A stretch of DNA of 64,000 nucleotides from an uncultured Gammaproteobacteria bacterium (GCA_964490105.1 CAZAZU010000001.1:646245-710244), one strand, 5' to 3'; shown: positions 4,101-49,423, counted from the first letter of the stretch. Translations and numbers: made by a program. The notes: generated by a model not told the origin, from the letters alone.

Positions 4101-4121
4101 ATATACCCCCCTAGGGTATAT
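4101..4121. promoter_or_regulatory. Candidate CsoR-type operator: perfect inverted repeat ATATACCC-N5-GGGTATAT inside a putative TTGACA-N17-TATCAT promoter on the minus strand
   Basis: atatacccccctagggtatat has 8-bp perfect arms and a C/G-rich core like known CsoR boxes. It lies 10 nt upstream of the csoR ATG, exactly in the -35/-10 spacer on the minus strand. Confidence 0.5.
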
Positions 4122-4169
4122 GTCAATATCCAAATTGACCGCGTTCTTTAAAACACTTATATTAAATAT

Positions 4170-4385: not shown

Positions 4386-4388
4386 AAC

Positions 4389-5018
4389 TTACTTTATAAC
4401 AACCATTGGATGCTCAAATGCTCTATTTAATGCTTCAGCTTGCAAATCTGGATTTCCTTCCCATCGATCTCTTCTTAAAGTTTGAACTCCTAAACCCACT
4501 ACATTAATTGTTCCTGCTTGATCTGCAATAATGAATAAGCCGTGTAGTGCAGTTGATTTAAAAGTCTTCGAAAGATGCTTTGAAAATCTTCCAAAACGGT
4601 CAGAGAATCTTCCAGCTGGTAGATCTAACTCTACTTTTCTTGATGATTTTATATCCCAGTTAACACCTAGATAACTAACATCTGGCAATAATTCAATCGG
4701 AGGTGTCGCAACCACCTTTGGCTGACCTTCTACTATTCTTGCAGGCCAACTATCATGTAAATATACGAGCTTACCTACTCCTATTTTATTGTAAAGATCA
4801 GCCATCTCAACTAAAAGATTAGGGAATGCACTCGCGATTAAATGTCCGGAGGCTAAATCATGAGGACTCACCTCATGCTCATCATGCCCACCATCATGAC
4901 CACCATGGCCAACTCCATGTACCGCAGGAGTAATAGGTGCTTCTGCCGCCTTTCTCCTAGCAGCCTCTGCAACTGCAAATTCTAATCCTGGAAAATTCGG
5001 TCTTCGATCTGGACTCAT
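4389..5018 (-). CDS. Hypothetical protein with His-rich N-terminal segment (HGVGHGGHDGGHDEHE)
   Basis: 209 aa ORF. Higher GC than surroundings. No recognised catalytic motif. Confidence 0.45.
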   Translation of the reverse strand: MSPDRRPNFPGLEFAVAEAARRKAAEAPITPAVHGVGHGGHDGGHDEHEVSPHDLASGHLIASAFPNLLVEMADLYNKIGVGKLVYLHDSWPARIVEGQPKVVATPPIELLPDVSYLGVNWDIKSSRKVELDLPAGRFSDRFGRFSKHLSKTFKSTALHGLFIIADQAGTINVVGLGVQTLRRDRWEGNPDLQAEALNRAFEHPMVVIK

Positions 5019-5068
5019 AGGCTCATATTATACTATAAGTCTATATTTAAAGCAATTAATGTCTGGAA

Positions 5069-5524: not shown

Positions 5525-5553
5525 TTTGTCGGATTTTGCTATAATCCTCGACT

Positions 5554-6243
5554 ATGTCTATAGAAACCTTTAAAGACCAGTATCCGTCAGGAGATAGATT
5601 CGCGGAAGCTGTAACTAAAAGAGCAGAATTTAAAAGAGGATATTCCAGAATGAGAGCTTTAGCTGATACGATGTATCACGAAGGAAGGGCAGGGCTTAAA
5701 GATGTCCACAGAGAATTAAGAAATAGCAAGCGTCTTGTCCCTGCATCTCCCCTTTCCTCAGATATTCCTCCATCTCTTAAAGATGCAATTAGCATGAATG
5801 CAGGTGCAGTTCTTTGGGGATCCATATTCAGAACTACCGAAATCATAGCCGTAGAAAGATTTTATGATCCGTCTTTTTTTGCTCATCTGGTAAGAGACGG
5901 TTTCAGAGGAATGGGGTGGGCTGACTCGATAAATCTTGGAAAACCTGAAGAAAAAGAGCCAACTCATTTTACTCATGCAAAAGTTGCAGCGCTTACACAT
6001 GAAGTTACTATTGATCCAAAAATGACATTTATATTCACAAAACAAGGGTTTAATCTACTTCCTACGACTTTTCAAGGCGATATCCTAGGAACTGCACTTT
6101 TTAATGGAATGGTTTCACATTTTGGACCTGTTTATCATTCTAGATCTGATGCACTCCTTAGAGCACCTGTTACACCTGCAGAACAAAAAGCCAGACAGCT
6201 ACAGTTAGTACTTCCTCAGCATAGGCCTTTAACTTTTAGATAA
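5554..6243 (+). CDS. Hypothetical protein
   Basis: 229 aa ORF in GC-rich block. No motif recognised. Confidence 0.4.
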   Translation: MSIETFKDQYPSGDRFAEAVTKRAEFKRGYSRMRALADTMYHEGRAGLKDVHRELRNSKRLVPASPLSSDIPPSLKDAISMNAGAVLWGSIFRTTEIIAVERFYDPSFFAHLVRDGFRGMGWADSINLGKPEEKEPTHFTHAKVAALTHEVTIDPKMTFIFTKQGFNLLPTTFQGDILGTALFNGMVSHFGPVYHSRSDALLRAPVTPAEQKARQLQLVLPQHRPLTFR

Positions 6244-7826: not shown

Positions 7827-8474
7827 CTAAAAAGGAATATCGTTAGAAGCTTGTTGATCATCAATTCCTTCAAAAATCATTCTTTTATATACTTGTCGTG
7901 TTAACTCCACATCTTTCATGCAATACTTATTAATCTCCTCTATTCTTCCCTGCTGATAATAATCCCAGACCATAGATCCATCCATTTCATCTTTTGAAGT
8001 TGGTAATCCTAAAACCTTAGCAAGAGTATCTAACTTTTGAACTTTGTCAAAGTTCCATAAAGACCATTGAAGCATAGTGTCATAAATAGGTATATCTCTA
8101 TACCTAGCAAAACTTATATCAGTTCTTGGCTTAACTTTATTTATTATGGAGCGCTGATAGATGAATGGGAGATCAAATGACCAGATATTATGTCCCACAA
8201 ATCTCATAACATCCTGGGACGCTTTCCAGAAATTAATTAAGATTTCTTTTTCGTCTCCTGAAAAAGTCTCCCTAAAAATTTCCTTACCGTTCATTTCTTT
8301 TATAACGGCAATTGAACAAATTCTCCCAAAAGTCCCGTCAAAAGAAGTATTTGCGTGAATTTCTGTTTCAGCCTTATTACTATTCCCGTTTTTCTTTTTA
8401 AGAATCTCGAGATATGTATTTTTATATTCTTCAGCGCAGGGAATTGTCTCTATATCAAAAAATAATGTAATCAT
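7827..8474 (-). CDS. DnaQ-like 3'-5' exonuclease (PolB-exonuclease-related, RNase H-like fold)
   Basis: 215 aa. Exo I FFDIET, Exo II GHNIWSFDLPF, Exo III YCMKDVELT (YxxxD). Confidence 0.7.
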   Translation of the reverse strand: MITLFFDIETIPCAEEYKNTYLEILKKKNGNSNKAETEIHANTSFDGTFGRICSIAVIKEMNGKEIFRETFSGDEKEILINFWKASQDVMRFVGHNIWSFDLPFIYQRSIINKVKPRTDISFARYRDIPIYDTMLQWSLWNFDKVQKLDTLAKVLGLPTSKDEMDGSMVWDYYQQGRIEEINKYCMKDVELTRQVYKRMIFEGIDDQQASNDIPF

Positions 8475-9543: not shown

Positions 9544-9984
9544 TTATTTATTGAATAATACAAAGTGTGGTAGTTGATCAAGCCCAATATAATTAAACAT
9601 CCACAAATCTTTTCTTCCACTTTTAAAAGTAGCAAGGTATTTCTTGAGATTTAACTTAGGAATAAAGGGATAAAATCTAATCTCTTGCTTCATTTCGTTC
9701 TTCTCAATCCACTTAAAATTAGCAATTAGCGGAGGTGCAAAATAACCAGACTTGGTAACTTTATCCATTACCTCCCATGTAGCACCAAAAATCTCCTTTT
9801 TTGGTTTAGTAGAATTTGTTTTAACTTGTGCACGAAAATTACACCCCACACACTGAACATCACAAAGAGGAAAACTTGGAGGAAGAAGCATTAATTTCTT
9901 TTTGCAATTAGGACAACTAATCAAATCCACGATTTCCTGTTCACCAAAATCCCCTGCTTCCTTATTTGATATTTTTAAATCCAT
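9544..9984 (-). CDS. Zinc-ribbon protein (CPNC ... CDVQCVGC), island accessory gene
   Basis: 146 aa. Two Cys clusters near the N-terminus. Immediately downstream of the methyltransferase-like accessory gene. Confidence 0.45.
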   Translation of the reverse strand: MDLKISNKEAGDFGEQEIVDLISCPNCKKKLMLLPPSFPLCDVQCVGCNFRAQVKTNSTKPKKEIFGATWEVMDKVTKSGYFAPPLIANFKWIEKNEMKQEIRFYPFIPKLNLKKYLATFKSGRKDLWMFNYIGLDQLPHFVLFNK

Positions 9985-10032: not shown

Positions 10033-10938
10033 TTAACTTATTAGGTCGACAAATTTTACTGATTTATTTTCAACCCAGTCCATGATCTTGACATACTTAC
10101 CATTATGCTTAGTAGGAAGATTATACTTACACCCTTCACATTTGAATTTCCCTTCTGCGTCTTTAAGCGCTAACTGACCGGTCTTGGCATTGGCTTCGTG
10201 AAGACAGCTCATGGGCGTTACATACTTTAAACCGTCCATTTGAAAAACATTCCAGCTAATAATTTCTGCAAATTCTTTCTGTATAGATAGATCTGGACTA
10301 TTATCATATTTTTCCTTGTAATAATCAATTAATGTGTAAAGTAAATTTTCGCGGGCTATAAGAATATTATCCCCTTGCCACTCAAATCCATAAGAGCTTT
10401 GGAATGCAATTCGCGCCCACTTTAACCATTCTTTTTTATTAGAACCGTATTTGGATACAATCTGTAGCTTATGATCTAAAAACCCTACTCGATCCTTAGT
10501 TTTAATGATTTCACCACGCACTACTGGGTCATACCGACTAACGATAAATGGCGCTTCACCACAAGTAATTTCTAATTTTAATTCAGCAACATAAGTCTTC
10601 CAATTCGATCTGTTTATTCGAGACCTATTGGTAATTTTGTTCATTTCACTCACTATGTTAAGAGGGGTAAATACTTCGCCTTTATTTCTAGCTCGATTAC
10701 GTTGCTCTTGTAGGCTTCTTATTATACGGGGTTGAATTAGCTCGCCATGCTTTCCTGTAATAAGCTGGGGTTTAATTTGTTTTTCAGAAGCAAATTCTAC
10801 GCCGTATTGCTCAAAATAAGAATCAGTTGCCCATATAATGTATTTGCTAGTCGTATGATCTCTTAGAAGAATATCAAGTAAATCATTATCAAGTAGAAGA
10901 GTGTTCTCTAGAATATCAGCTTTATCTAAATAAGCCAT
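10033..10938 (-). CDS. Methyltransferase-like accessory protein: motif X (GEVFTP) and motif-I-like (LEITCGEAPF) present, no NPPY/DPPY; C-terminal CEGC cluster
   Basis: The ORF track gives 10033..10998. Start is more likely Met21 (ATG 10938..10936), 1 nt after the stop of the giant upstream gene, with a weak GGA upstream. The layout parallels the methyltransferase segment of the 1343-aa protein but lacks motif IV. Confidence 0.5.
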   Translation of the reverse strand: MAYLDKADILENTLLLDNDLLDILLRDHTTSKYIIWATDSYFEQYGVEFASEKQIKPQLITGKHGELIQPRIIRSLQEQRNRARNKGEVFTPLNIVSEMNKITNRSRINRSNWKTYVAELKLEITCGEAPFIVSRYDPVVRGEIIKTKDRVGFLDHKLQIVSKYGSNKKEWLKWARIAFQSSYGFEWQGDNILIARENLLYTLIDYYKEKYDNSPDLSIQKEFAEIISWNVFQMDGLKYVTPMSCLHEANAKTGQLALKDAEGKFKCEGCKYNLPTKHNGKYVKIMDWVENKSVKFVDLIS

Positions 10939-10939
10939 A

Positions 10940-13900
10940 TTATTCCATGGCTTTGACATGTGTTTCGATAAAATTTTTTTCTTTGTCATCAAGTCCATAT
11001 TTTTTATAAAGCTGCTTATCTATTTCAGAAACAGATTTTGTCCATTGTATATCTGATTTATCAGTAAAATCTTGAAGGGGGATGAATTTATACGTCTTTG
11101 AAGTAGCGTCTTGACTTGCTTTATTAAGGCTATGCAGAAATCTAGCAAATTTGGACTGTAAATATCTAGAAAGGTTATATGAAGAAAGTTTGTCTAATTT
11201 CAATTTTGCACCAATTACAACATAAGATTCCGTACAAATGGTATTTGGGTAACCAATAAATGTGTTTAAATTATCGTCATTTAACTCAGTCCCGATATTG
11301 TTTGCTCTTGGGGTGAATACTTTGTAATTATTAATCCAGTCTGTATTCCTTGTGATTTCACTCCTTTCTAAATAACCTATTTTTTTACCTTTTCCGTAGC
11401 AAGTAACAGGATGCCTCAAATTCTCTTTAGAAGACCTAAAAATCTTTGAATTCTTAATTATGTCACCATCTAAATTGAAAGGCCGTCGTGATGAAACATG
11501 AACTTCAAGAGATTTAAACTCGGAATAAGATTTAATTTTTTTAAGTATAGTTATCGCCTGAAAGTGTCGGATAAAAATATCAAAGCCTTCTGTGCTCAAG
11601 CTACGTGTACTAATTTTTGGCGATAAGTTATTCTCATATGTAAATATTTTGGTTAGATTCTTTGTATTATTGTAATTCCTATCCCATAATAGGTAACAAA
11701 TTCCTCCTCTTAAATTTATTTGTGGAAAAATTAATTCCGGATTAAGAAAATCATGTAGTTCAGTTATATGAATATCATTTAACATTCGAGCCCTAAAATC
11801 ATCCAAACCTTTACCACCCGCATACCAACGCGTTGGCATAATCATAGATATGTAGTGAGGTTTAAGGTTTTTAGCCATTTCAAAGAAAAGATTATAGACA
11901 GGCTTAGCGCTAGCCTGAGCTCCTCCATCCTTTTGCTGATAAGGGGGGTTTCCTACAATTGCTGTAAATTTCATATTATTCTTTTCTGACATAGTACCAT
12001 AAGTCTTCAAATCATCTATTGATATCTCACAGAACTTTTTATCTTGGAACAATAAATACTCAATTTCTTCATCTTTCAACTTGATAAGATCAAATGAATA
12101 GAAAAGCCTGGCAATATTATCTACATTTAAACCCAACGCTTCATACATTTTTCGAGTAAATTCATATGCAACTGGTGAGGTAGGAATTGAATAAAAATTA
12201 TTTCGTACTTCTTCTAAATTTATGCCAATATTAGTGACCTTTTCCACAAAACCCTTCGCAAAACTTCCTGATTTACTAGCTAAATCCAAAATTTTTGTAT
12301 GCTTAATATTGTCCCAAAACTTTTCATCAAAAGCGCGGTACATTTCGTTAACGATATGTGAGGGAGTAAAAACTTCTGCTTCAGACAGTCGTCCAAATTT
12401 ATTTATGGCAATTTCGATATGCTCAACCGGTGAAATACTCCCATCGTATGAACGAAAATCCGAATTTTGAATTTTATAATCAAGAGCACTCAGTACAAAT
12501 GGATTGATATTTTTGCGAATGAGCATTAGATCCTCTTTATTAATGCCAAGATTTTGGGCAATGCGACGATTATCATCATTTACATCAATATTAGATATAA
12601 CATCGGTTAAGGATTTTTCTTCAGTAGAAGATAGAAATGCAAATAGAAGAATCATCACATAATATGTGCGGAAACGCTTTTCAAATGATGAGATTTCTTC
12701 ACTATCTCCTTCTTTCTCTATAGATGATGTTGCCTTACTGCCTGCTCCTTCAATTCCATTTTCCACACCTTCTCCTTCTAAATCTATTCCGTCTTCTTCA
12801 TTTGGCTTAATATTAATCCCATTCTTCCCACCAAGCTCTGGCAATTCACTAATAACCTCATAAATCGCTTGGTTGTCTTTTAACGAAGCATCAATACCAA
12901 TTTCTTTTACATCTTCAATTATCGTTCTGTCGTTTACATATTTACGGACTTCATCGATAATTCTTGTAGCTGTTACTTCAACAAGTTTATTTCTCTCGGC
13001 ATTAAGCGTTATGATAGGCGAAATTTTAAGTTCTCGTTGAATGAACTCTTCGATATTTTCATTTCCTATTTTCTGTGTATTTGCGCCATAAGTAAATGCT
13101 TTCATTTCTTGAAGGTAAAAAAGCCTTGTTGGATCGAGGTCTACCAAAAGTGTTTGTGGTTTCATGTCATATTTAATAAAATCGCCATTTTTATCTTGAT
13201 ATTTCTCAACCCAAGGTGACTGTAAACGAAATATCGCCTGATCATATTCTTGTGGACTTGTCGTAGATTTAAGATAGATCATAGTATCCCATTGTGGTAC
13301 GGTAGAGCCAGTAAGCATTTTATTAACTGTTAAGGTAATTGTCTTTTTACCTTTTGATTCAGCGTATGATATCGCTGACTTAATTTCCTCTGGTGTTATG
13401 AGTTTTTTATTATATCCACTAATATTAAAGATTTCATATTCAGAAATATTCTTAAATAATGATAAATTAGTTAAAATAAGTTTTTCGAAAGCATCACATG
13501 ATGCGCAGTACGGCAACACAACAACTATGTGTTGCGCGAGCTTGCCTGCTTTAATAGTCTCGTTGTCGAGCAAACCAAGCATGTTGGCATCTTTTTTAGA
13601 ACCATCAAGTACTTGAAGCAATTCAATAATTTCTTGTTCATAAACAAAAGATTCATAGTCGCCATTCCTACTGATACTTACAGGGGTGAATAATTCGGCT
13701 GGTTTGCTACCCGGAATATTAGCAAGCTTTTTGCGTGAACTTTCATTGGGATTAAACGCAAAACGAATCATCTGCGGAAATCCATAATATGGATTGTCCC
13801 ATTCGTTTTCATCCAAATGATCCTCGTTCCAGTTTAATTTTGCTTCGTAAATATCGCCAAATTGTACAAAAGCAATAATATCCTCTTTATTAAACTCACT

Positions 13901-14971
13901 TCCCATCAAGATGCGATATGGAGTCCCGGAAAGGTGAAGTTTAATTTTAGCCTTTATTGATACGAGCTTAGTAAGAGAACCAAAATCAACCGGGTCTTCT
14001 TTGTCATTCTTTAGTAATTCTTTATCTTCATCATCAATTTCCAGTCCTGCAAGAATCTTACCCAGTACTTTTGCTCGAGCTCCAAAGTGTGTCTCATCGA
14101 TAATCAACAGATCTACACTAACTGTTTTTAAAATTTCATGGTGTTTTTTTATATTTTCTGAAGAACCTGCAAGGTCTTGTAATGTGAGAAATAAAACAAC
14201 ATTTGTACAATTCTCCTCTCCAATACCCGTCTTAAATTTTTGGTCATAAAAATCTGACAATCTCAATCCTCTTTTGAGATCGTCTTTATCAATAAAACGG
14301 TAACCTGCAAAATCCTTGTGACTTTCTACAGTTTGCTTCCATTCCGACCGCACATCTGCTTTTGCAGAGACTATAACCGTAAACTTAGAGTCAATACTTT
14401 TAGCGCTCCACATCGAAGTAATTGACTTTCCAAAACGCATAACAGCATACATGAGAAGATTAGTACGACCATTTTTTACAGCTGAATTGAATGCATTTAT
14501 GACATTTTGTTGGTTTTCGCGTGGGAGATAATCCTGTGTTCGACTGTAATGATATTCTATAATCTCCCTTGAGTTATTGTAATATTCATATTTATCTGTC
14601 TTTTGATAATTATTTACAATATCATTCACGGCATTAGTTATCTCAATCTCGCCAATTCCTTCAAAAAACTCCGTAGAATAAATATTTTTCAAAATATTCA
14701 AAGGGATTTGAGTAAAACCATTTTGCTGCAGATATTTATGTACAGAATAATCACGGAAAAATACTTTGCCATCAATTGATGCTTTATGACGAGAGATCTC
14801 TTTTAAGTCTTTATAGTATCGCCTCCATTCATTCAGTCGCTCCTCAACTGGGCGATAGGTATCTCCCACTTTCAGATAGTTCGGGAGGGTATTTGTTGCA
14901 AAAGAATAGATATAGGGAGACACCCGACCGATAATTATTTTTTGTAATTCTGAAGTATTTATCCTAGACAT
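10940..14971 (-). CDS. Single-chain T5orf172(GIY-YIG-like)-SF2 helicase-N6-adenine methyltransferase-TRD protein (Type ISP-like restriction-modification/defence enzyme)
   Basis: 1343 aa. N-terminus YIYSFATNTLPNYLKVGDTYRPVEERLNEW (T5orf172/GIY-YIG-like). Helicase Walker A MRFGKSITS and DEAH-like LIIDETHF. Helicase C motifs MLTGSTVP and QAIFRLQSP. Methyltransferase motif X EVFTPSHIV, motif I ILDLASKSGSFAKGF, motif IV IVGNPPYQQ. About 300 aa C-terminal putative target-recognition region. Confidence 0.75.
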   Translation of the reverse strand: MSRINTSELQKIIIGRVSPYIYSFATNTLPNYLKVGDTYRPVEERLNEWRRYYKDLKEISRHKASIDGKVFFRDYSVHKYLQQNGFTQIPLNILKNIYSTEFFEGIGEIEITNAVNDIVNNYQKTDKYEYYNNSREIIEYHYSRTQDYLPRENQQNVINAFNSAVKNGRTNLLMYAVMRFGKSITSMWSAKSIDSKFTVIVSAKADVRSEWKQTVESHKDFAGYRFIDKDDLKRGLRLSDFYDQKFKTGIGEENCTNVVLFLTLQDLAGSSENIKKHHEILKTVSVDLLIIDETHFGARAKVLGKILAGLEIDDEDKELLKNDKEDPVDFGSLTKLVSIKAKIKLHLSGTPYRILMGSEFNKEDIIAFVQFGDIYEAKLNWNEDHLDENEWDNPYYGFPQMIRFAFNPNESSRKKLANIPGSKPAELFTPVSISRNGDYESFVYEQEIIELLQVLDGSKKDANMLGLLDNETIKAGKLAQHIVVVLPYCASCDAFEKLILTNLSLFKNISEYEIFNISGYNKKLITPEEIKSAISYAESKGKKTITLTVNKMLTGSTVPQWDTMIYLKSTTSPQEYDQAIFRLQSPWVEKYQDKNGDFIKYDMKPQTLLVDLDPTRLFYLQEMKAFTYGANTQKIGNENIEEFIQRELKISPIITLNAERNKLVEVTATRIIDEVRKYVNDRTIIEDVKEIGIDASLKDNQAIYEVISELPELGGKNGINIKPNEEDGIDLEGEGVENGIEGAGSKATSSIEKEGDSEEISSFEKRFRTYYVMILLFAFLSSTEEKSLTDVISNIDVNDDNRRIAQNLGINKEDLMLIRKNINPFVLSALDYKIQNSDFRSYDGSISPVEHIEIAINKFGRLSEAEVFTPSHIVNEMYRAFDEKFWDNIKHTKILDLASKSGSFAKGFVEKVTNIGINLEEVRNNFYSIPTSPVAYEFTRKMYEALGLNVDNIARLFYSFDLIKLKDEEIEYLLFQDKKFCEISIDDLKTYGTMSEKNNMKFTAIVGNPPYQQKDGGAQASAKPVYNLFFEMAKNLKPHYISMIMPTRWYAGGKGLDDFRARMLNDIHITELHDFLNPELIFPQINLRGGICYLLWDRNYNNTKNLTKIFTYENNLSPKISTRSLSTEGFDIFIRHFQAITILKKIKSYSEFKSLEVHVSSRRPFNLDGDIIKNSKIFRSSKENLRHPVTCYGKGKKIGYLERSEITRNTDWINNYKVFTPRANNIGTELNDDNLNTFIGYPNTICTESYVVIGAKLKLDKLSSYNLSRYLQSKFARFLHSLNKASQDATSKTYKFIPLQDFTDKSDIQWTKSVSEIDKQLYKKYGLDDKEKNFIETHVKAME

Positions 14972-16160: not shown

Positions 16161-16727
16161 TTAAGGAGCTGGAGTAGGACTTTCTGCAGGGCTAATAGTT
16201 GGATCCACTGAGACTTGGGGATTAGGACTTGGGGCTGCAGTTTGGGATTTAAAATCCAATAATTCTATTTCAAAAATTAGAGGGGTATTTGGCGGAATTG
16301 GCCCAGAGCCAGCTGCTCCATACGCTAAATCTGAAGGAATTCCTATTTGCCTCTTCCCTCCAATTTTCATACCTACCACTCCTAGCTCGACACCTTTTAT
16401 AACCTGCCCTGCACCTACCTGAAAGGTTAATGGAGAGTTTTTTTGATATGAATCATCAAATATCTTTCCATCCATAAACGCTCCCTTATAATGAATCGTA
16501 ACGATGTCACCAGCTACAACTGCAGCAGAAGAAGTTCCTACATTTAAATCTCTTCCAGTTAATTCAGTTAGGGGTACCGGAGTAGGCGTTACCCCTTTTG
16601 CACCTAAGTTTAGAACCGTAAGGTCTTCGCCCATTTTAGGTAATTTATTAGATTGAAAAACGAGAAGAACCATGAGAAGTATTAGAAGTCCAAATGCGCC
16701 AATTGCAATTAAGTGTTTGTTTTCCAC
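16161..16727 (-). CDS. FKBP-type peptidyl-prolyl cis-trans isomerase, membrane anchored, Pro/Ser-rich C-terminal tail
   Basis: 188 aa. GDIVTIHYKGAFMDGKIFDDSY...LIFEIELLDF FKBP core. N-terminal TM. Confidence 0.85.
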   Translation of the reverse strand: MENKHLIAIGAFGLLILLMVLLVFQSNKLPKMGEDLTVLNLGAKGVTPTPVPLTELTGRDLNVGTSSAAVVAGDIVTIHYKGAFMDGKIFDDSYQKNSPLTFQVGAGQVIKGVELGVVGMKIGGKRQIGIPSDLAYGAAGSGPIPPNTPLIFEIELLDFKSQTAAPSPNPQVSVDPTISPAESPTPAP

Positions 16728-17116: not shown

Positions 17117-19024
17117 ATGACAGCGAAGCAAATCATAGATATTTATATAAGTTTTTTTGAAAAACGCGGACATAAAAGAATCCCCAATTCTCCACTCGTT
17201 CCTGAAAATGACCCCACTACTCTTTTTACTTCTTCCGGAATGCAGCCTTTAGTTCCATATTTATTAGGACAAGAACATCCCCAAGGAAACAGATTAGTAG
17301 ATGTACAGAATTGTTTTAGAGCAGTAGATATCGATGAAGTTGGAGATAACAGGCACACCACTTTTTTCCGAATGCTCGGCAACTGGAGCCTAGGAGATTA
17401 TTTTAAAAAAGAGGAAATTCCATGGCTTTGGGAACTACTCACAAAAGAGCTAAGACTTCCAAAAGAAAAACTATATATAACAATCTTTGGAGGAGATGAA
17501 AATTTCAAAGTTTTAAAAAATGACAAATATCAACCGCTAACTCCGGACGCAGAATCATATTCCATATGGGCCAAAACATTAGATATTGAAAATGATGCAG
17601 ATGAAAAGAAGAAGAGAATCACCTATTGCGGTGCTGATAAAAATTGGTGGTCTAGGTCTGGAGTACCAGAAAAAATGCCAATCGGTGAACCGGGAGGACC
17701 TGACACGGAAGTTTATTATAAATTTGAAAATATTGAGCACGAAAAAAATTGCCTAGGTGACAGCCCAGCGTTATGTGAATGCGGAGTTTACTTAGAAATC
17801 GCGAATGCAGTCTTCATGCAATATAAAAAAATCGACGAAATAACTTTTGAAGAATTACCAAATAAAAATGTGGATTTTGGTGGCGGACTTGAGAGACTTA
17901 TCGCAGCTACAGAAAACAAGAGTGATATATTTCAGACTTCTCTTTTCGCACCTGTCATAAAATCTCTTGAAGACAATATATTAACAAAGTTTAAATATGA
18001 TAACGAAATAAGAGTTGATAAATCATTTAGGATAATCGCAAATCATCTTGTATCCGCTGTTTTTCTCATAAACTCAGGCATCTTGCCTGGAAATAAAGAA
18101 AGAGAGTCCGTCACTAGAAGATTAATTCGCAAAGCTGTTGCCCAAAAGTTTCTATGGGGAGATCGAGAAAAAAGTTTTTCTCCAGTAATAGAGATAATTC
18201 TTGAAACCTATAGAGAGACTGATCCTGAATTAAAAGATTTAGTAAAGAAAGTTATTGAGGAAGAAGAAATAAAAGCGAATAGAGCAACTAATGAAGGATT
18301 TAAGGCATGGAGCAAGTGGGTTGAAGCAGAATATATTTCTAATCCACAAATACCTGGAGATTTTATGCCTGGAGAAGGAGGTAAACTTCCACCACTTTCT
18401 GCTGAGAAAATGTTCGATCTTTATCAGTCCTATGGCTTATCACTTGATGTTATGGAAGATGTAACCCAAGGAAATATAGACAAGGAAGGTTTTAATAAAC
18501 TACTTGAAAAACATCATGATATTTCTCGAGCTGGTGCTACTAAAAAATTCGCGGGAGGGCTTGCGGATCATTCTGAACAAACAGTGAGAGGACACACTGC
18601 GACCCACCTTATGCACCAAGCCATAAGAGATATGCTGGGAACATCAGTTCACCAGTCAGGGTCAAACATTACAGCTGAAAGAGTGAGGTTTGATTTTAAT
18701 TTTGATAGAAATTTAACAGATGAGGAAATAACCAAACTTGAACAGACTGTAAACGAAAAAATAAAAGAAAAAATGCCTGTTTATTTTGAATTTATGCCGC
18801 TCGTTAAAGCTAAGGAAATAGGTGCAATCGGACTTTTTGATGAAAAATATTCTGACAAAGTAAAAATATATTTAATTGGTGACAAAAATCCAGAAAAAGC
18901 GTACTCAAAAGAGTTCTGCGGGGGCCCCCATGTCAACTTTACTGATGAGGTAAAATCGTTTAAGATAATAAAGCAGGAGAATATCGGAAACGGCCTGCGT
19001 CGGCTTTATGCAAAAGTCGGTTGA
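17117..19024 (+). CDS. alaS: Alanine--tRNA ligase, short form lacking the C-terminal (C-Ala) domain
   Basis: 635 aa. FTSSGMQP, FFRMLGNWSLGDYFK catalytic core, editing-domain HTATHLMHQAIRDML (HxxxH). Confidence 0.9.
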   Translation: MTAKQIIDIYISFFEKRGHKRIPNSPLVPENDPTTLFTSSGMQPLVPYLLGQEHPQGNRLVDVQNCFRAVDIDEVGDNRHTTFFRMLGNWSLGDYFKKEEIPWLWELLTKELRLPKEKLYITIFGGDENFKVLKNDKYQPLTPDAESYSIWAKTLDIENDADEKKKRITYCGADKNWWSRSGVPEKMPIGEPGGPDTEVYYKFENIEHEKNCLGDSPALCECGVYLEIANAVFMQYKKIDEITFEELPNKNVDFGGGLERLIAATENKSDIFQTSLFAPVIKSLEDNILTKFKYDNEIRVDKSFRIIANHLVSAVFLINSGILPGNKERESVTRRLIRKAVAQKFLWGDREKSFSPVIEIILETYRETDPELKDLVKKVIEEEEIKANRATNEGFKAWSKWVEAEYISNPQIPGDFMPGEGGKLPPLSAEKMFDLYQSYGLSLDVMEDVTQGNIDKEGFNKLLEKHHDISRAGATKKFAGGLADHSEQTVRGHTATHLMHQAIRDMLGTSVHQSGSNITAERVRFDFNFDRNLTDEEITKLEQTVNEKIKEKMPVYFEFMPLVKAKEIGAIGLFDEKYSDKVKIYLIGDKNPEKAYSKEFCGGPHVNFTDEVKSFKIIKQENIGNGLRRLYAKVG

Positions 19025-21318
19025 TCTCTATGAACTTACCAAAACTGCCCTTTTTAGAGAAAAAGAATAAATCGGAGTTTTTCCTCTCTCTAGTTCTTCG
19101 TGATGAAAAAGCTAGTGCTGTAGTTTTTCAGGAAATTGACGGGAAAATAAATGTAGTCGGAGAACATGTAGTTAACTTTAAAACATCCGTTGAAGACGCC
19201 TCAGAAGAAGAATTACTTGACGCGATAGATAAAGCGGTTTCAACTGCAGAAAAAAATCTTCCCCCTGACATGGAAAGTCACAAAACTATTTTTGGAGTAA
19301 AACAGGACTGGATAATTGACGGAAAGATTAAACCTGCATATCTAACTAAATTAAAAAAAATAAGCGATGAACTGGAATTTAAGCCAATGGGTTTTCTTGT
19401 AATTCCTGAAGCCATCGCACATCTGCTTCAAAAAGAAGAAGGCGCACCAGTTACTGCGATTCTCGCTGAAATCGGACAAAAAAACGTAACTCTTTCTTTA
19501 ATTAGAGCAGGAAAAATTGTAGAAGCAAAAGGAGCCGCAATCGGCGACTCGCTGGTCGCGACAGTTGAAACAGTTCTTAAGCATTTTTCCGTGGAAAATC
19601 TCCCGCCAAGAATTATTCTGTTTGATAGCGGACGCGAAGATGTCCAGCAAAAATTTATAACTCATAAATGGAGTCAAAGTCTTCACTTTTTACACCTCCC
19701 TCAAGTAAGTGTACTTCCAGCAAATTTTGATGCAAGAGCCGTACTTTCTGGTGCAGCAACTCAGATGGGATTTGAAATATTTGAAGCTTCTCTTACTGAT
19801 GTAGAAAATTCAAACACCAAACATATAAGAGCTGCTGTTCCAATTGTCGAGGAAGAACCAGACAGAACGCTTGCTGAGGCAGCATCTGAATTTGGATTTG
19901 TTGGAGGGGACGTAAAAGATACTAAAGCAGAAGCCAAAACTGAAAAAGATTTACTTGAAACCACAGAAGAATTAGAAATAGAAGATACAGAACCAGTTAA
20001 AGATATTCCAAAAACTGCTGTAATGGATAACATATCTCCCGCAGATCAATTCAGAGAAATTCCAGAAGAAGTAAAAATAAATAGTGCGGAGAAAAAACCG
20101 CTTCCAATAAACGCAGCGCTAATGATGAGTGGCATTATGGGTTTTATTAAAAAAGTACATCCGGGGAAAATATTAAAAGGAGCAAATGGATCACGCAAAA
20201 AACTCATAATTGGAATTATTCCGCTCGCCATAATTCTTCTTTTCCTCTACATTTATCTTTTTGGCAGGAGTGCGACAGTTACTTTAGGAATTGATGCCAG
20301 AGAAGAGGATGAGGAAGTAAATGTAACATTCTCTGAATCTGAAGCGACAAGCGCTTCGGATAATGTTATAAATGCGGAGTTTATAACTGTTACAGCTGAT
20401 GGTAAAAAATCTATCGCTACCACAGGTAAAAAAGAAATCGGAGATAAAGCGAAAGGAACTGTAACATTATTTAACAGCAATACCTCAGGAGTTACGATTC
20501 CAACAGGCACCGTAATAACATCTCCAAATGATCTTAAATTCGTTACAGATAAGGCGGTCACAATTGCCTCCGCCTCAGGCGATATTTTCTCAGGAACTGA
20601 GCCCGGGAAAGCAGATGTAACTGTAACTGCTGAGAAATTTGGTACAAGTCAAAATCTCCCAAGCAATACTAAATTCACAGTCGAGGGAAGTAGCTCAGTT
20701 GCTGCAAAAAATGATAAAGCATTTTCAGGAGGAACTAAAAAAGAGGTAAAAGTTGTCGCGAAAAAAGATCAGGATAAATTACTCGCGGAACTTCAGAAAG
20801 ATTTAGAAACTGAAGCAAAAGAGCAAATTCAAAAAAAAGCAGAAAATGGATCTGTAGTATTACCAAACTTTATCTCAGTCGAATATGATAAAAAAACCTT
20901 CAGTAAAGACGTTGATGATGAAGCAACAGAAATCAGTCTAACCGGAACAATAAGCTATAAAGGGGTTTCGTACAAAGAAGAGGATATTCTAAAATTTGCT
21001 AAAGACAAACTTGAGACCAGCAGTGACTTAGAAGTAGATAAAGATAGCATAGAAGCAAGTGCAGCCAATCTAAAAGCAAAAGGAAATAATGCTACTGGAA
21101 AACTTACCATAAAAGCTAATCTGGTTCCAAAAATTGACTCAAAGGAAATTGCTAAGGAGATAAAAGGAAAATCTACGAAGGATGCTATTGAGAAACTAAA
21201 TGAAATAGATGAGGTAAATAAAGTAGATATAAAATTATTCCCGCCTATCCCCTTTCTCCCACAGCGTATTCCGTTCTCCTCGGGAAAGATAAAAATAATG
21301 ACAGAAAAAAATGGGTAA
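19021..21318 (+). CDS. Large bitopic membrane protein: N-terminal cytoplasmic domain with FtsA/PilM-like (actin-fold-like) features, central TM, C-terminal extracellular Thr/Ser/Lys-rich domain
   Basis: 765 aa. Start overlaps alaS stop (ATGA). TM LIIGIIPLAIILLFLYIYLFG near aa 395-415. Domain assignment is tentative. Confidence 0.55.
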   Translation: MISMNLPKLPFLEKKNKSEFFLSLVLRDEKASAVVFQEIDGKINVVGEHVVNFKTSVEDASEEELLDAIDKAVSTAEKNLPPDMESHKTIFGVKQDWIIDGKIKPAYLTKLKKISDELEFKPMGFLVIPEAIAHLLQKEEGAPVTAILAEIGQKNVTLSLIRAGKIVEAKGAAIGDSLVATVETVLKHFSVENLPPRIILFDSGREDVQQKFITHKWSQSLHFLHLPQVSVLPANFDARAVLSGAATQMGFEIFEASLTDVENSNTKHIRAAVPIVEEEPDRTLAEAASEFGFVGGDVKDTKAEAKTEKDLLETTEELEIEDTEPVKDIPKTAVMDNISPADQFREIPEEVKINSAEKKPLPINAALMMSGIMGFIKKVHPGKILKGANGSRKKLIIGIIPLAIILLFLYIYLFGRSATVTLGIDAREEDEEVNVTFSESEATSASDNVINAEFITVTADGKKSIATTGKKEIGDKAKGTVTLFNSNTSGVTIPTGTVITSPNDLKFVTDKAVTIASASGDIFSGTEPGKADVTVTAEKFGTSQNLPSNTKFTVEGSSSVAAKNDKAFSGGTKKEVKVVAKKDQDKLLAELQKDLETEAKEQIQKKAENGSVVLPNFISVEYDKKTFSKDVDDEATEISLTGTISYKGVSYKEEDILKFAKDKLETSSDLEVDKDSIEASAANLKAKGNNATGKLTIKANLVPKIDSKEIAKEIKGKSTKDAIEKLNEIDEVNKVDIKLFPPIPFLPQRIPFSSGKIKIMTEKNG

Positions 21319-25025: not shown

Positions 25026-25697
25026 TCAATCACCTAACTTAATATTAATCTTTCGCTCTAGTGTTGTAGTTCTGCCAAATTTATTCTCTACTTGAAACGT
25101 AAGAGAAGTAGATCCCGGAAAAACTGTAATCTGTTTATTAAAACTCCCGTCCGAATTTATCGTAACTTGTTCATTCTCGACCATAAGAATTCCATTCGGA
25201 TCAGTTTTTCCCTTCACTTCAATATTTAGTGAAGATAATGTTTGACCTTCCTGAGGTGAGTCTACATCCAAACCCGGGTTAAACACTGCAGCTCTATATT
25301 GAAAAAATAGAAAAGCTGAAATTATTAAAAACACAGCAGCCACCAGAAGTGCGCTTTTTCCGATCTTAAATCTAGGGAGAGTAAAATCCGAAGAATTAGT
25401 TAGTCCTCTTGGTAACACCTCAACCGCTTTCTTTCCGTCAAATTCGCGCCTAAATATTGCAAGACTTTTTTCAACCGGTAAACCTAAAAATTCTGCATAA
25501 TTTCTAACAAATCCATAAGCGTAAGCAGGGGAAGGGAGTTTTTTGTAATCCCCTCTTTCTATCGCACTCAAGAATTCAGCTCTAATTTTTGTAGCACGCG
25601 AAACCTCTTCAATGGATAGATTTTGATTTTTTCGTTCCTCCTGGAACTGTATTCCTATACTAATCATATTTAAATTACTCGCTTTGAGGCTCACCAA
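25026..25697 (-). CDS. rodZ: RodZ-like cytoskeleton protein (XRE-type HTH + TM + C-terminal domain)
   Basis: 223 aa. HTH LSIEEVSRATKIRAEFLSAIERGDYKKLPSPAYAYGFVRNYAEFLGL. Central TM. Confidence 0.6.
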   Translation of the reverse strand: MVSLKASNLNMISIGIQFQEERKNQNLSIEEVSRATKIRAEFLSAIERGDYKKLPSPAYAYGFVRNYAEFLGLPVEKSLAIFRREFDGKKAVEVLPRGLTNSSDFTLPRFKIGKSALLVAAVFLIISAFLFFQYRAAVFNPGLDVDSPQEGQTLSSLNIEVKGKTDPNGILMVENEQVTINSDGSFNKQITVFPGSTSLTFQVENKFGRTTTLERKINIKLGD

Positions 25698-27768
25698 GGA
25701 TTTGTGAAGGATCTTTTATTAAAACGTCTCTTGGCTTACTTCCTTCAGCTCTTCCAACAATTCCTGCAGCCTCCAGCTGATCTAAAATTCTTGCAGCTCT
25801 AGAATACCCTATTGAAAGACGGCGCTGTAAGAGTGAGGCCGAAGCTTTATCATATTCACAAATAACTCTAACTGCTTCTGCAAATACCGGATCTTTCCCG
25901 TCAGCTCCAGATGTTCCAATACTCCCCTTAGGAGTATAAGGTGTGGAGATAATTTCTTCGGTGTACTCAACAGCTGGAGATTTAGATTTAAGGAATTCCA
26001 CTAATTTCTTAACTTCTTTATCTGAAACAAATGCCCCCTGAATACGAGTAGGTTTTGCCTGGTCTGGAGGAATATATAACATGTCTCCTCGTCCCAAAAG
26101 CTTCTCAGCACCAGGTCCGTCAATAATAACGCGAGAGTCAATCATAGATGACACATTAAATGCGATTCTACATGGAACATTTGCTTTAATTAAACCGGTA
26201 ATAACATCAACCGATGGACGCTGTGTCGCAATTACCAGATGTATTCCAGTAGCTCTAGCCATCTGCGCAAGACGGGCAATTGTATCTTCAACCTCAACTG
26301 GCGCAAACATCATAAGATCAGCTAACTCGTCGATGAAAATAATAATATATGGAAGGGCCTGGAATCCTGCAAGCTCATTATATCCGTCTATATTCCTAAC
26401 TCCTCGCTCAGCAAAAGTTTTATACCTTCTATCCATCTCATTTGTGGCCCATTTAAGAGCTGAAAGAATTTTCTCAACCTCTACTATAACTGGCACCATA
26501 AGATGAGGAATTCCATTATATCCTGTTAACTCAACGCGCTTTGGATCGATAAGAATTAATTTTACTTCTTCTGGACTTGCGCGGAAAAGCAGGGAAGTGA
26601 TAAATGAATTTACGAGTACTGATTTTCCGGATCCGGTAGTTCCAGCTACAAGTACGTGAGGCATTTTCCCTATATCCGCAATCAGAGGATTTCCGGAAAC
26701 ATCAAGTCCAAGTGAAACTGATAATTTAGACTTAGATTTTCTCATTAAGTCTGACGAGAGCATTGTTCTAAGTGTTACAACTTCCAAAGATTTATTTGGA
26801 ATTTCAATACCAACTAAATTTCTGCCTGGAATTGGAGCCTCAATTCTAATTTGTCCGGTCGGAGCCTGCGTATTAAGCGCTAAATCGTTTGCAAGCGAAG
26901 TAATTTTAGAGACTTTTGTTCCAAGTGCAATTTCTAAAGCATACTGTGTAACAGCAGGACCCAAGTTTACTTCTACGACCTTTGCAATAATTCCAAAACT
27001 CTGAAGTGTCTCTTCGATCTTTGCAGCGGTAGCTTTAACATCTCCTCTATCAGCTTTTCCTCCTCCGCCATCTTCAAGAAGATCAAGCGGCGGATATTCC
27101 CAAATTAGCCCTGATGACAATGTATTTGAAACTAATTTTTCTGTAATAAGCGCTTCATCTTTCTTAACAGAATTACTTACAATCGCCGGCCCGTTTTTAT
27201 TAAAGCTTGAATCTTTAATAGTCATTTGTTTGTTAAGAAGTGGATCCTTTTGTTTTTTCAAAAATGAAGTTGGAACCACTTTTCCGCCTGTCTTTCTAAA
27301 TGCAGACAGGCCTTTTAGAATTTCATCTACTGAAGTATCAAAAAGAACGACCAAACCAATAAATATTCCTGCTAGAAAAACTAAAAGAGTTCCAATTGGA
27401 GTAATAACATCTGAAATATTCCCAAACATTAATTGACCTATGTATCCTGAACGAAACAAAACTACTGCTGATCCATAAAGGATCAAAAAGCCAATTGCCA
27501 CATTTGGACGGGAGAGTGCAAATTTAGTTTTAAAGAAAAGAAATCCAAATAAAATAAACACAAATCCCAGGAAAAATGAAAAAGGCCCAAAATACTGTCT
27601 TATAAAAGTATTTATGTAAATAAAGGTGTCTCCGGAATTACTAAATGAAAGAAGAAGCAAGAGTCCGGCAACGATCTGACCGAGAGCAAAAATAGTATAA
27701 ACTGTCTTAGTCTTAAGCTTTATTTTGAATTTTCCACGCTTACCATAAGCCCCACGTTTTCTGGCCAT
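25675..27768 (-). CDS. ftsK: DNA translocase FtsK/SpoIIIE
   Basis: 697 aa. N-terminal TMs. Walker A GTTGSGKSV, Walker B IIFIDELADLMM. C-terminal winged-helix gamma domain. Confidence 0.9.
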   Translation of the reverse strand: MARKRGAYGKRGKFKIKLKTKTVYTIFALGQIVAGLLLLLSFSNSGDTFIYINTFIRQYFGPFSFFLGFVFILFGFLFFKTKFALSRPNVAIGFLILYGSAVVLFRSGYIGQLMFGNISDVITPIGTLLVFLAGIFIGLVVLFDTSVDEILKGLSAFRKTGGKVVPTSFLKKQKDPLLNKQMTIKDSSFNKNGPAIVSNSVKKDEALITEKLVSNTLSSGLIWEYPPLDLLEDGGGGKADRGDVKATAAKIEETLQSFGIIAKVVEVNLGPAVTQYALEIALGTKVSKITSLANDLALNTQAPTGQIRIEAPIPGRNLVGIEIPNKSLEVVTLRTMLSSDLMRKSKSKLSVSLGLDVSGNPLIADIGKMPHVLVAGTTGSGKSVLVNSFITSLLFRASPEEVKLILIDPKRVELTGYNGIPHLMVPVIVEVEKILSALKWATNEMDRRYKTFAERGVRNIDGYNELAGFQALPYIIIFIDELADLMMFAPVEVEDTIARLAQMARATGIHLVIATQRPSVDVITGLIKANVPCRIAFNVSSMIDSRVIIDGPGAEKLLGRGDMLYIPPDQAKPTRIQGAFVSDKEVKKLVEFLKSKSPAVEYTEEIISTPYTPKGSIGTSGADGKDPVFAEAVRVICEYDKASASLLQRRLSIGYSRAARILDQLEAAGIVGRAEGSKPRDVLIKDPSQILGEPQSE

Positions 27769-32982: not shown

Positions 32983-33465
32983 TTGAGAAAAGAACACTTT
33001 CTTTTACTCCTAGTGTTTGTTTTGGCTTTATTATCAGTGCTATTTATAGCAGATAAATACTCCGGAAAAAGTCTAAATAATCCATTTGCGTCCGTTACAC
33101 CTTATCCTACGATTATCCCCGGGAATAATTCCGGAGAAATTATTTCCATGGCCCCCTCTTCTTCTCAAAATATCGAAGTCCTATCTCCCAGATCAGGTGA
33201 TAAAGTAAAATCTGAATTCGTAGTTAAAGGGAATGCTAGGACTTTTGAAAGCAATGTAGCGATTAGACTTTATGATTCAGAGGGAAACGTACTGATAGAA
33301 ACTTTTACACTGGCGAATGCACCAGATATCGGACAATTTGGACCTTTTGAAAAAATGATAAGCTATGTAACTGATTCACAAACTGGAACACTTGAGGTTT
33401 TTCAATACAGCGCAAAAGATGGATCCCAAATAGATAAAGTTACAATCCCTGTGGTCTTCCGGTAG
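32983..33465 (+). CDS. Secreted Gmad2-like immunoglobulin-like domain protein
   Basis: 160 aa. N-terminal signal/TM. C-terminal ~100 aa resembles the Gmad2 Ig-like domain (SGDKVKSEFVVKGNARTFESNVAIRLYDSEGN...). Confidence 0.5.
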   Translation: MRKEHFLLLLVFVLALLSVLFIADKYSGKSLNNPFASVTPYPTIIPGNNSGEIISMAPSSSQNIEVLSPRSGDKVKSEFVVKGNARTFESNVAIRLYDSEGNVLIETFTLANAPDIGQFGPFEKMISYVTDSQTGTLEVFQYSAKDGSQIDKVTIPVVFR

Positions 33466-33973
33466 AAAGTCGTTCTCTCCAATTATTTCCCCATTCCTCT
33501 ACCACTTCTCTTCGCGGCATCCACACATCAAAAGCAATTCCCCCTCGAGAAGCTCTCATTTCATGTCTGACGCTAATTCTTAAAATTAAATCACTCACAC
33601 TGCTTTGGATTGGAAAAACTCTTTGCTTCTCATCATCTGTATATTTATCTTCGATATGCTTTCGATAACTGGTTTCATAACTATTTCTAGCTGCTTGATA
33701 CGGGTTTCTGATTCCCTGCAGTCTATGAAGATAATAAACAGTGGGATTTACTACTCCTCTTAAGCCATGAAATCCAAGATTATCTGCTAAAAAAGCTTCT
33801 TCTCTCAACTGCCTTAGCCCTAAATACATTACGAGAGTTTGCTGATCAACTCCGGCCAAACCAGCTGCACCTGAAATTCCAAATCTTCTATCCATTTTTC
33901 TTGCATCAGCTAAAAATCTATTTGCGAATGATGGATCTAACTGTGGTTCACCTTGTGCGATACGCTCACCCAT
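33440..33973 (-). CDS. Hypothetical protein (GC-rich)
   Basis: 177 aa ORF. Overlaps the convergent upstream gene by 26 nt. No motif recognised. Confidence 0.35.
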   Translation of the reverse strand: MGERIAQGEPQLDPSFANRFLADARKMDRRFGISGAAGLAGVDQQTLVMYLGLRQLREEAFLADNLGFHGLRGVVNPTVYYLHRLQGIRNPYQAARNSYETSYRKHIEDKYTDDEKQRVFPIQSSVSDLILRISVRHEMRASRGGIAFDVWMPRREVVEEWGNNWRERLSTGRPQGL

Positions 33974-48887: not shown

Positions 48888-49423
48888 TTATCAAGCTCTT
48901 CGTTTATATAATCTATCGCTTCTTGTGGAGTTTTTCTAAAAACTATATAGTCCCGCATATCAAAAGCGTTAAATTTATCATCCTCCATTTTTTTAAATTG
49001 CGTTCTTAATCCTTCATAAAAATTATCAGTGTCCAAAACTACAATTGGTTTTTCATGATGCTTTTGTCTTTTAAGCTCTGCTATATGAAGAAGCTCATCC
49101 AGAGTTCCAAGTCCGCCTACTAATGCGACTATAGCAACTGCTTTATCAAGCATTATCAATTTCCTATCTCCTAAGTCTTTTGCAAGAATCATTTCGCTTA
49201 CGTCTTTTCTAGCAAGCTTATGAAAAACCTGCATCGAAACACCAATTACTTCCCCACCATTTTTTCTAACCTCGTCCGCTACTACTTTCATGAGCCCTGT
49301 ATCAGTCCCTCCAAAAACCAAATGATATCCATGCTCAACTAGAAGCCTTGAAAACTCCTTCGCAGGCTCTATATATTTAGAATCCAGATCGCGGGATGAG
49401 CAAAAAACAGCAATATATTTCAT
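48884..49423 (-). CDS. LOG family protein (TIGR00730 Rossmann-fold nucleotide-binding, cytokinin riboside 5'-monophosphate phosphoribohydrolase-like)
   Basis: 179 aa. VFGGTDTGLM and GGLGTLDEL. Confidence 0.8.
   Translation of the reverse strand: MKYIAVFCSSRDLDSKYIEPAKEFSRLLVEHGYHLVFGGTDTGLMKVVADEVRKNGGEVIGVSMQVFHKLARKDVSEMILAKDLGDRKLIMLDKAVAIVALVGGLGTLDELLHIAELKRQKHHEKPIVVLDTDNFYEGLRTQFKKMEDDKFNAFDMRDYIVFRKTPQEAIDYINEELDK

Follow-up and report, generated by a model that had tools for sequence, protein, structure and literature searches.

A 64,000-nt stretch of DNA from an uncultured Gammaproteobacteria bacterium (GCA_964490105.1, CAZAZU010000001.1:646245-710244; hereafter the window) carries a large open reading frame (ORF) encoding a protein of 1343 amino acids (aa) and, directly downstream, a small partner gene. 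The large protein is an intact member of a widespread restriction-modification (RM) family already known to databases, and represents a GIY-YIG variant of the Type ISP design. Together, the two genes are best read—at a probability of about 0.55—as an ATP-dependent RM system of Type ISP-like architecture, in which the modifying methylase would be split between a short product of the large ORF and the partner protein. The features concerned are the following.

10940..14971, minus strand: main ORF, predicted restriction-modification enzyme, 1343 aa (ORF list and translation, Pfam, PADLOC, Foldseek).
14627..14929, minus strand: T5orf172 (GIY-YIG superfamily) domain, aa ~15-115 (Pfam PF10544, invariant columns, hhalign).
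12872..14536, minus strand: superfamily 2 (SF2) helicase-like ATPase motor, aa ~146-700 (Pfam, 58 homologs, fold matches).
12692..12829, minus strand: acidic, glycine-rich linker, aa ~715-760 (low predicted local distance difference test (pLDDT) scores and alignment gaps).
12122..12604, minus strand: N-terminal half (N-half) of the main protein's methyltransferase, aa ~790-950, with a helical region, motif X (EVFTP), motif I (LDLASKSGSF) and FYSIPTS..AYEFTRK (Pfam, invariant columns, pLDDT).
10943..11974, minus strand: exchangeable cassette and putative nested product, aa 1000-1343, 344 aa, running from MKFTAIVG-NPPY (motif IV) to motif VIII and including the target-recognition domain (TRD) (PADLOC, covariation, start signals).
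11974..11972, minus strand: candidate internal start, ATG, aa 1000 (codon conservation, and Shine-Dalgarno (SD) sequences in relatives).
10033..10938, minus strand: partner gene, 301 aa, half-methyltransferase (PADLOC, neighbourhood, hhalign, phage fusion).

The Type ISP enzymes LlaGI and LlaBIII translocate along double-stranded DNA (dsDNA) from an asymmetric site at the expense of ATP, cleave when head-to-head enzymes collide, and methylate one strand. By analogy, the methyltransferase and TRD of the full-length protein would recognise an asymmetric site and sense whether it is methylated; where the DNA is unmodified, the SF2 motor would translocate along dsDNA, and the T5orf172/GIY-YIG domain would cut upon stalling or collision of the enzyme. 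Residues 1000-1343 would also be translated alone from a conserved in-frame start, yielding a 344-aa short product devoid of the S-adenosylmethionine (SAM)-binding half of its Rossmann fold. The partner would provide that half, and the two proteins would form a split, motor-less methyltransferase that protects the host and bears an identical TRD. Since the same TRD codons lie in both arms, restriction and modification would share one specificity, and a swap of the cassette would alter both together. One ORF would then specify two enzymes—a translocating GIY-YIG restriction enzyme and a 344-aa fragment active as a methylase only with the partner—a design to which we give slightly less than even odds and of which no description was found for any RM class. 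For the parts of this scheme, a role in RM or defence is highly likely, while translocation-coupled cleavage and formation of the methylase by partner and cassette are each held to be fairly probable. Observed directly are the domain content, the conserved catalytic motifs, the likeness of fold to LlaBIII, the linkage of the partner gene, the modularity of the cassette, the internal start signal of relatives, and the split and fused versions in phages; we infer cleavage, translocation, the joining of partner and short product, and initiation at the internal start in the window genome.

The main ORF is real: the initial annotation placed it exactly, on the minus strand and at 1343 aa, and a protein identical to its product is already on record. 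Every motif that had been quoted is present in the translation in the order given, namely YIYSF (aa 20-24), YLKVGDT (aa 32-38), ERLNEW (aa 44-49), MRFGKSITS (aa 178-186), LIIDETHF (aa 289-296), MLTGSTVP (aa 552-559), QAIFRLQSP (aa 578-586), EVFTP (aa 866-870), LDLASKSGSF (aa 895-904), and NPPYQQ (aa 1008-1013). The proposed N-to-C order of nuclease, SF2 motor, gamma-class N6-adenine methyltransferase, and TRD is supported by Pfam, by motif positions, and by Foldseek. In alignments of 16 to 119 homologs, the motif residues of nuclease, helicase, and methyltransferase are invariant or nearly so, and thus all three enzymatic modules look active. The description of the enzyme as single-chain holds in that all domains occupy one ORF, but it missed the conserved half-methyltransferase partner gene and the probable internal start.

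Membership of a large family is evident from several sources. The PADLOC model REase_MTase_IIG (PDLC03626, derived from REBASE) matches aa 9-1342 with 1186.6 bits, covering positions 12-1359 of a 1359-position profile. A protein search with the main protein returned 4619 significant matches, and the best 120 of these are all at least 50% identical to it, 119 being full length and one partial (1052 aa). Some matched homologs are already annotated with all three domains. A scan of one genome per species found at least 505 encoding loci, distributed over Saccharibacteria and other members of the candidate phyla radiation (CPR), Bacteroidota, Campylobacterota, Bacillota, Actinomycetota, Spirochaetales, Melainabacteria, and one Woesearchaeota metagenome-assembled genome; family members are also found on plasmids and in phages. 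NCBIfam has no match to the main protein or to the partner, and a PHROGs scan of the main protein returned generic helicase and methyltransferase families only. Relatives lie beside OLD/Gabija-like ATPases, SIR2-HerA, and integrases, and behind C-protein-like helix-turn-helix (HTH) genes.

The suggestion that this domain combination is not a described family does not hold, given the full-length PADLOC model and two earlier proposals in the literature. Morgan et al. (2009) reported that a DEAD helicase and a GIY-YIG protein flank MmeI-like methylases (YeeA/B/C), and they also referred to 'large single polypeptides' that combine endonuclease, helicase, methylase, and TRD (PMC2731913). Sisakova et al. 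(2012) mentioned Type ISP relatives with GIY-YIG nucleases (PMC3553950), and a 2023 study returned to the DnmA-YeeB-YeeC cluster (PMC9973331). Full-text literature searches found no biochemical characterisation of the fused GIY-YIG/helicase/methyltransferase family.

The N-terminal assignment to T5orf172/GIY-YIG is borne out by PF10544, which scores 26.5 bits against a curated cut-off of 20 (E=9.4e-6, aa 20-114) when aa 1-150 are scanned alone; Pfam does not report the domain when the entire 1343-aa protein is scanned. The same model matches 11 of 16 homologous N-termini, and hhalign aligns the region to a Pfam-confirmed T5orf172 protein adjoining a Saccharibacteria homolog (E=4e-5). Invariant residues of the domain comprise Y22, K34, G36, R45, E48, W49, R73, D74, H78, E101, F102, and F103. 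Conservation of the GIY-YIG catalytic Arg and Glu, which the initial annotation had proposed to check, extends over 16 diverse homologs for Y22, R45, and E101, as well as H78; from the order of the motifs, Y22, R45, and E101 would correspond to the catalytic residues of I-TevI. Pfam scans found no match to an Mrr nuclease at the N terminus of the main protein.

The claim of a complete SF2 helicase core is likewise upheld. Pfam ResIII matches aa 150-352 (E=2.7e-7) and Helicase_C matches weakly; the GKS of Walker A (aa 178-186), DEtH (aa 289-296), SGTP (aa 348-351), motif V (aa 552-559), and motif VI (aa 578-586) are invariant in 58 homologs. The linker that follows is the block with the most gaps and variability in the family alignment, and its pLDDT falls to 24-37 (residues 571-614 of an AlphaFold model that covers aa 145-1343 with a mean pLDDT of 78). 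Foldseek ranks LlaBIII (4xqk) as the top PDB match to this model (E=1.9e-24, ~1500 aligned columns), the alignment running from the motor through the methyltransferase to the TRD, and the runner-up (4e-14) lies ten orders of magnitude behind. Other matches to the methyltransferase-TRD part are CamA, BrxX/PglX, DrdV, M.BseCI, and MmeI, and those to the motor part are Chd1, ISWI, and SauUSI. The initial view of a Type ISP-like enzyme with a swapped nuclease, for which structure prediction had been suggested as a check, thus stands: the domain order is that of Type ISP, T5orf172 takes the place of Mrr, and the best fold match is LlaBIII.

The methyltransferase is of the gamma-class N6-adenine type, as had been claimed, with motifs X, I, and IV (NPPY) conserved and a match to Pfam Eco57I (PF07669) at aa 925-1082 (E=2.4e-22), in which profile positions 2-72 map from aa 925. 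In 58 homologs, no variation is seen in the TP of motif X, D896, G902, or GNPPY. The main protein's own N-half is modelled with a pLDDT above 90.

The partner gene begins 1 nt past the main stop, the junction reading TAAtATG, and its length of 301 aa recurs in the NCBI record. It matches PADLOC MTase_II (PDLC03390, E=5e-92) but neither Pfam nor PHROGs scans return a match. A partner homolog is the large gene's neighbour in 83 of 85 loci from different phyla, in either gene order: it lies downstream in the CPR clade and upstream elsewhere, there often behind a C-protein-like HTH gene. Residues invariant in the partner family comprise EVFTP (motif X), EITCGEAPF (motif I), YG(Y/F)EWQGD..ARENL (motifs II/III), and a C-C-C-H cluster; the window sequence reads YGFEWQGD..ARENL and has the C-C-C-H zinc knuckle at its C-terminal end. 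Absent from the alignment of partner homologs are NPPY (motif IV) and the entire catalytic half, and the partner should therefore be unable to methylate alone. Its profile aligns by hhalign, at 95% probability, with a 230-aa 'N-6 DNA methylase' encoded beside a distant relative on the Lactococcus plasmid pCV56A, a protein that itself matches only positions 20-105 of Pfam N6_Mtase. Because it aligns with this N-half protein, the partner is the SAM-binding N-terminal half of an N6-adenine methyltransferase. Whether it could be a diverged paralog of the main protein's own N-half was also considered; there, hhalign pairs only 54 columns, near EVFTP and motif I, with a probability of 8%. PDB sequence searches with the partner and with its family profile gave no usable match. 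Some records label the partner a 'restriction endonuclease'; its identity as a nuclease was considered and rejected in view of the alignment with the N-half of N6_Mtase, and the true Mrr gene of L. reuteri encodes a protein distinct from the partner.

Three distant relatives with 25-37% identity, on Lactococcus plasmid pCV56A (L088), a Rhizobium plasmid (L089), and an L. reuteri plasmid (L090), all retain a small half-methylase gene of 215-235 aa, and the remainder of each locus is rearranged. In Lactococcus, the N terminus is DUF4145-like in place of T5orf172; in Rhizobium, a 538-aa methylase is separate from an 847-aa GIY-YIG-helicase; and in L. reuteri, an Mrr gene is inserted.

These features bear on the possibility of an ordinary Type IIG enzyme with a companion methylase, which would cut at a fixed distance with no translocation, its helicase being auxiliary or vestigial and its partner a second methyltransferase. 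The Eco57I system is likewise composed of an RM fusion and a separate methylase. The full-length REase_MTase_IIG match, the matches of both partner and cassette to MTase_II models, and the resemblance of methyltransferase and TRD to DrdV, MmeI, and BrxX all fit this explanation. It is nonetheless improbable, as the motor motifs remain invariant across phyla at 43-60% overall identity, the closest structure is that of a Type ISP enzyme that translocates, and a partner without motif IV and the catalytic half could not methylate by itself. A large family that is biochemically unstudied is filed as 'Type IIG' despite its intact motor and Type ISP look, and automated defence annotation probably mislabels its mechanism; that the family is uncharacterised and probably a mislabelled Type IIG is a fair conclusion.

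Returning to the two-gene Type ISP-like system, the C-terminal part of the main protein behaves as an exchangeable unit. A second PADLOC model, MTase_II (PDLC03375), matches aa 999-1342 (E=5e-117), the same span as the cassette, and a phage methylase is 61% identical over aa 934-1342. In the last 258 aa, identity is uncoupled from the remainder of the protein. Thus, the closest backbone relative (L004) is 66% identical in the nuclease, 76% in the helicase, and 60% in the N-half but only 31% in the TRD, and in another locus (L019) the TRD match is undetectable, whereas distant Campylobacterota with a backbone identity of about 45-50% share 67% identity in the TRD. Over 75 loci, TRD identity covaries with that of the catalytic half at aa 1000-1085 (partial Spearman 0.67 with helicase controlled) and shows no covariation with the nuclease, the helicase, the main protein's N-half, or the partner. 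Since the TRD tracks the catalytic half alone, the exchangeable unit is aa ~1000-1343. The description of the final ~300 aa as a non-conserved, likely TRD was therefore half right: the region acts as an exchangeable TRD, but it is conserved, with 43-67% identity to most homologs across phyla.

The boundary of this unit coincides with what looks like a start of translation. Codon 1000 is start-capable in 73 of 78 loci (ATG in 54, GTG in 17, TTG in 2), and where position 1000 is valine, the codon is GTG in 17 of 18 cases. Among 33 loci of SD-using lineages, an SD core of at least 6 nt lies at -18..-5 of this codon in 25 (background 0.6%) and one of at least 5 nt in 30 (background 3%), the background being taken from other start-capable codons within the same genes; the binomial P values of about 1e-37 and 1e-28, respectively, overstate independence, as the loci are related. 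The internal SD is stronger than that of the N-terminal start, at which 9 of the 33 loci reach 6 nt or more, and the 21-mers upstream of codon 1000 are all distinct in the 33 loci. In loci of Bacteroidota type, where initiation does not depend on SD sequences, the 21 nt before codon 1000 rank (median) in the top 2-3% of A-richness within the gene. Free-standing cassette genes begin at exactly the equivalent of residue 1000. Internal initiation is accordingly judged very probable for the family on these codon and leader signals.

Free-standing and fused forms of the same two parts occur in phages. In Tenacibaculum phage PTm1, three adjacent genes encode the cassette (ORF-277), an HTH protein, and a partner homolog (ORF-279); ORF-277 opens with MKFDIIVGNPPY and shares 67% identity with aa 1000-1343 of the main protein. 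In Fusobacterium phage FNU4_28, a partner-type N-half is joined directly to the cassette in one chain, and Pfam Eco57I positions 9-171 are continuous over the junction. The split and fused forms suggest that a single methyltransferase domain could be built from a partner-type N-half and a cassette, whether joined in cis or encoded separately. A census of cassette architectures among the 150 best cluster representatives gave at least 13 free-standing cassettes with the first residues (M)xFxxxxGNPPY/F (several more begin a few residues away), 16 partner-cassette fusions of about 600-670 aa, about 21 cassettes with an N-half like that of the main protein and no motor (some of them fragments), and 41 with a helicase-like motor. 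A similar range is found in IMG/VR contigs, where L153 is another split form and L156 another fused one. The expectation that viral contigs would be mainly methylase-only was not borne out: complete systems are present, together with conventional methylases of ~500 aa next to separate helicases and a handful of split or fused forms, a mixture that supports the split-methylase model by example only.

In 16 near-identical IMG/VR contigs (L108-L123, about 1020-6019), the large ORF is broken in most, and the cassette end has its own ORF downstream of partner and helicase ORFs, which 15 of the 16 retain; the break could reflect frameshift, phase variation, or decay. Four phage genomes, those of the Lak megaphages MK250019.1 and MK250029.1 and of the human gut phages MT835565.1 and PV036449.1, encode long homologs of the fused enzyme with about 29% identity. 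Three of the four span nuclease to TRD, and that of Lak-C1 begins at aa 155.

A number of points weigh against the two-gene system with its split methylase, the first of them concerning the restricting arm. HMMER found no sequence homology to LlaBIII or to any other PDB chain, either by phmmer or with a 58-sequence profile (4xqk included; E<=1, one spurious match apart), and the Type ISP resemblance, consisting of a fold match in the absence of detectable sequence homology, is therefore architectural and structural, not one of close homology. No experiment shows cleavage, translocation, or methylation by any family member, YeeA-type relatives expressed alone had no endonuclease activity (PMC2731913), and in B. 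subtilis, transformation was as efficient after loss of the DnmA N6-methyladenine (m6A) mark as before (PMC9973331). Such results suit an enzyme that does not restrict at all, whether a motor-coupled methylation or epigenetic machine or a BREX-like non-cleaving defence, with a T5orf172 domain that binds DNA and leaves it uncut. T5orf172 has indeed been termed a DNA-binding domain of uncertain function (PMC9973331; PMC2731913), the methyltransferase resembles BrxX/PglX, and full-length homologs are carried by phages and IMG/VR contigs, Lak megaphages among them. Against this stand the invariant Tyr, Arg, His, and Glu of GIY-YIG type and the position of relatives in defence islands, behind C-protein-like regulators; moreover, phages drop the nuclease and motor and keep the methylase parts, as counter-defence against a restricting enzyme predicts. 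A non-restricting role is accordingly considered unlikely.

The remaining objections concern the modifying arm. The main protein has a complete and highly conserved N-half of its own, so that a second is not obviously needed; its own may serve recognition and methylation-state sensing in restriction mode. One TRD type occurs in 68 of 75 loci, the window included, with four rarer types among the 75, which is unusual under diversifying selection. In the window, the internal ATG has no SD, its leader is moderately A-rich (11th percentile), and no TATAAT stands at the usual distance before codon 1000; nor is there an excess of promoter-like sites (28, compared with 27.8 in shuffles). The window genome appears to depend to a large extent on leaderless transcripts: an exact TATAAT is found 6-12 nt before the start codon in 11 of its 35 long ORFs (less than one expected by chance), a position so near the starts that leaderless transcription is suggested, and SD sequences are nearly absent before its long ORFs. 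With neither SD nor TATAAT before codon 1000, the case for an internal start in the window comes from its relatives, and we give it an even chance.

On the same grounds, the partner might be a SAM sensor or regulatory subunit, and the internal SD and start either a relic of gene fusion or a translational pause between folding units. The complete N-half of the main protein leaves room for such a role, partner-TRD covariation is not seen, and the existence of the cassette as an independent gene makes a fusion origin plausible. A relic would be expected to decay, yet the SD persists although the upstream sequences differ in all 33 loci, and it is stronger than the SD at the gene's own start, and in lineages not using SD the signal becomes an A-rich leader. 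The phage proteins that fuse a partner-type N-half to the cassette as one Eco57I domain also speak for a catalytic partnership, and the regulatory explanation is consequently thought rather unlikely.

The 10-mer GAATAATATG occurs at 10936..10947 and 11972..11983 (minus strand), ending in the partner start codon and the candidate internal start codon, respectively; this may be chance in AT-rich DNA or a common initiation signal. The ORFs preceded by TATAAT are 4389..5018, 5554..6243, 7827..8474, 9544..9984, 16161..16727, 17117..19024, 25675..27768, 33440..33973, 46783..47844, 48884..49423, and 56702..58117.

The window belongs to the chromosome of a small-genome bacterium and contains no tRNA genes in its 64,000 nt; nearby genes include alaS and those for an FKBP isomerase and a copper ATPase. 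The supposed AT-rich island is not apparent, as the GC content of the main gene (33.8%) offers no real contrast to that of the window (35.8%). Three neighbouring genes merit description.

9544..9984, minus strand: 146-aa DpnI-catalytic-domain-like protein (CPNC..D..CxxC..QVK; weak match to Pfam DpnI, E=2e-4).
7827..8474, minus strand: stand-alone PolB-exonuclease-like 3'-5' exonuclease gene.
19021..21318, plus strand: 765-aa protein with a Baseplate_J-like domain.

The DpnI-like protein has no winged-helix domain and is probably encoded by a separate gene, with its own TATAAT. A gene 68% identical to it occupies the same position in one CPR genome (L004, 12942-13373) and is absent from the other loci. 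Further DpnI-like genes are found at three loci (L172, L173, and L174; 6001-6438), beside different adenine-methyltransferase RM genes, and the family has more than 1100 members, 60-85% identical, in Patescibacteria. As it is present in only two genomes of the set and stands beside other RM types elsewhere, the gene was rejected as a component of the system; it may be a defence-hotspot marker or a methyl-directed nuclease. The exonuclease gene and the DpnI-like gene share a near-identical upstream sequence, GTATAATTCACGnnC-ATG. The first 4 nt of the Baseplate_J-like gene overlap the end of alaS (17117..19024); such a gene is unusual company for a tRNA synthetase.

If the proposed system is correct, the nested product and split methylase would explain how fused RM enzymes achieve enough safe methylation without the motor firing, how specificity can be exchanged without lethal mismatch, and why phages carry exactly the partner and the cassette as a counter-defence methylase. 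The combination of a GIY-YIG nuclease, a programmable TRD, and a motor is also of possible interest to enzyme engineers.

Among known systems, LlaGI and LlaBIII resemble the main protein in uniting a nuclease, an SF2 motor, a gamma-class N6-adenine methyltransferase, and a TRD in one chain. Their nuclease is an Mrr PD-(D/E)XK domain, whereas that of the main protein is T5orf172/GIY-YIG, and they act without accessory subunits, whereas here a conserved partner gene is present. Neither a half-methyltransferase partner nor a nested short product, which is probable here, is described for Type ISP. As regards the translocation of LlaGI and LlaBIII, it is the ATPase motifs alone that are seen intact in the main protein.

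The B. subtilis DnmA(YeeA)-YeeB-YeeC cluster links the same three activities in one operon and was proposed in 2009 as a helicase-dependent RM system with a GIY-YIG nuclease (PMC2731913, PMC9973331). It consists of three genes and has an MmeI-family methylase, whereas the system described here has one chain of Eco57I family and a half-methylase partner; by description, the two are set apart. The Rhizobium plasmid locus, with its half-methylase, methylase, and GIY-YIG-helicase genes, is a split relative belonging to the present family.

Type IIG/IIL enzymes (Eco57I, MmeI, DrdV) likewise carry nuclease, methyltransferase, and TRD in one chain, and the likeness extends to the Eco57I Pfam domain, the full-length PADLOC Type IIG match, and the fold matches to DrdV and MmeI. 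They have a PD-ExK nuclease and no nucleoside triphosphate-dependent motor, however, whereas the main protein has a GIY-YIG nuclease and a motor of ~550 aa, with invariant ATPase motifs, between nuclease and methylase. Type I systems, finally, use one HsdS common to the methylase and restriction complexes, and are thus similar in that a single specificity element serves both activities, which cannot drift apart. In Type I a subunit is shared, whereas here the sharing would be achieved through two translation products of one ORF.

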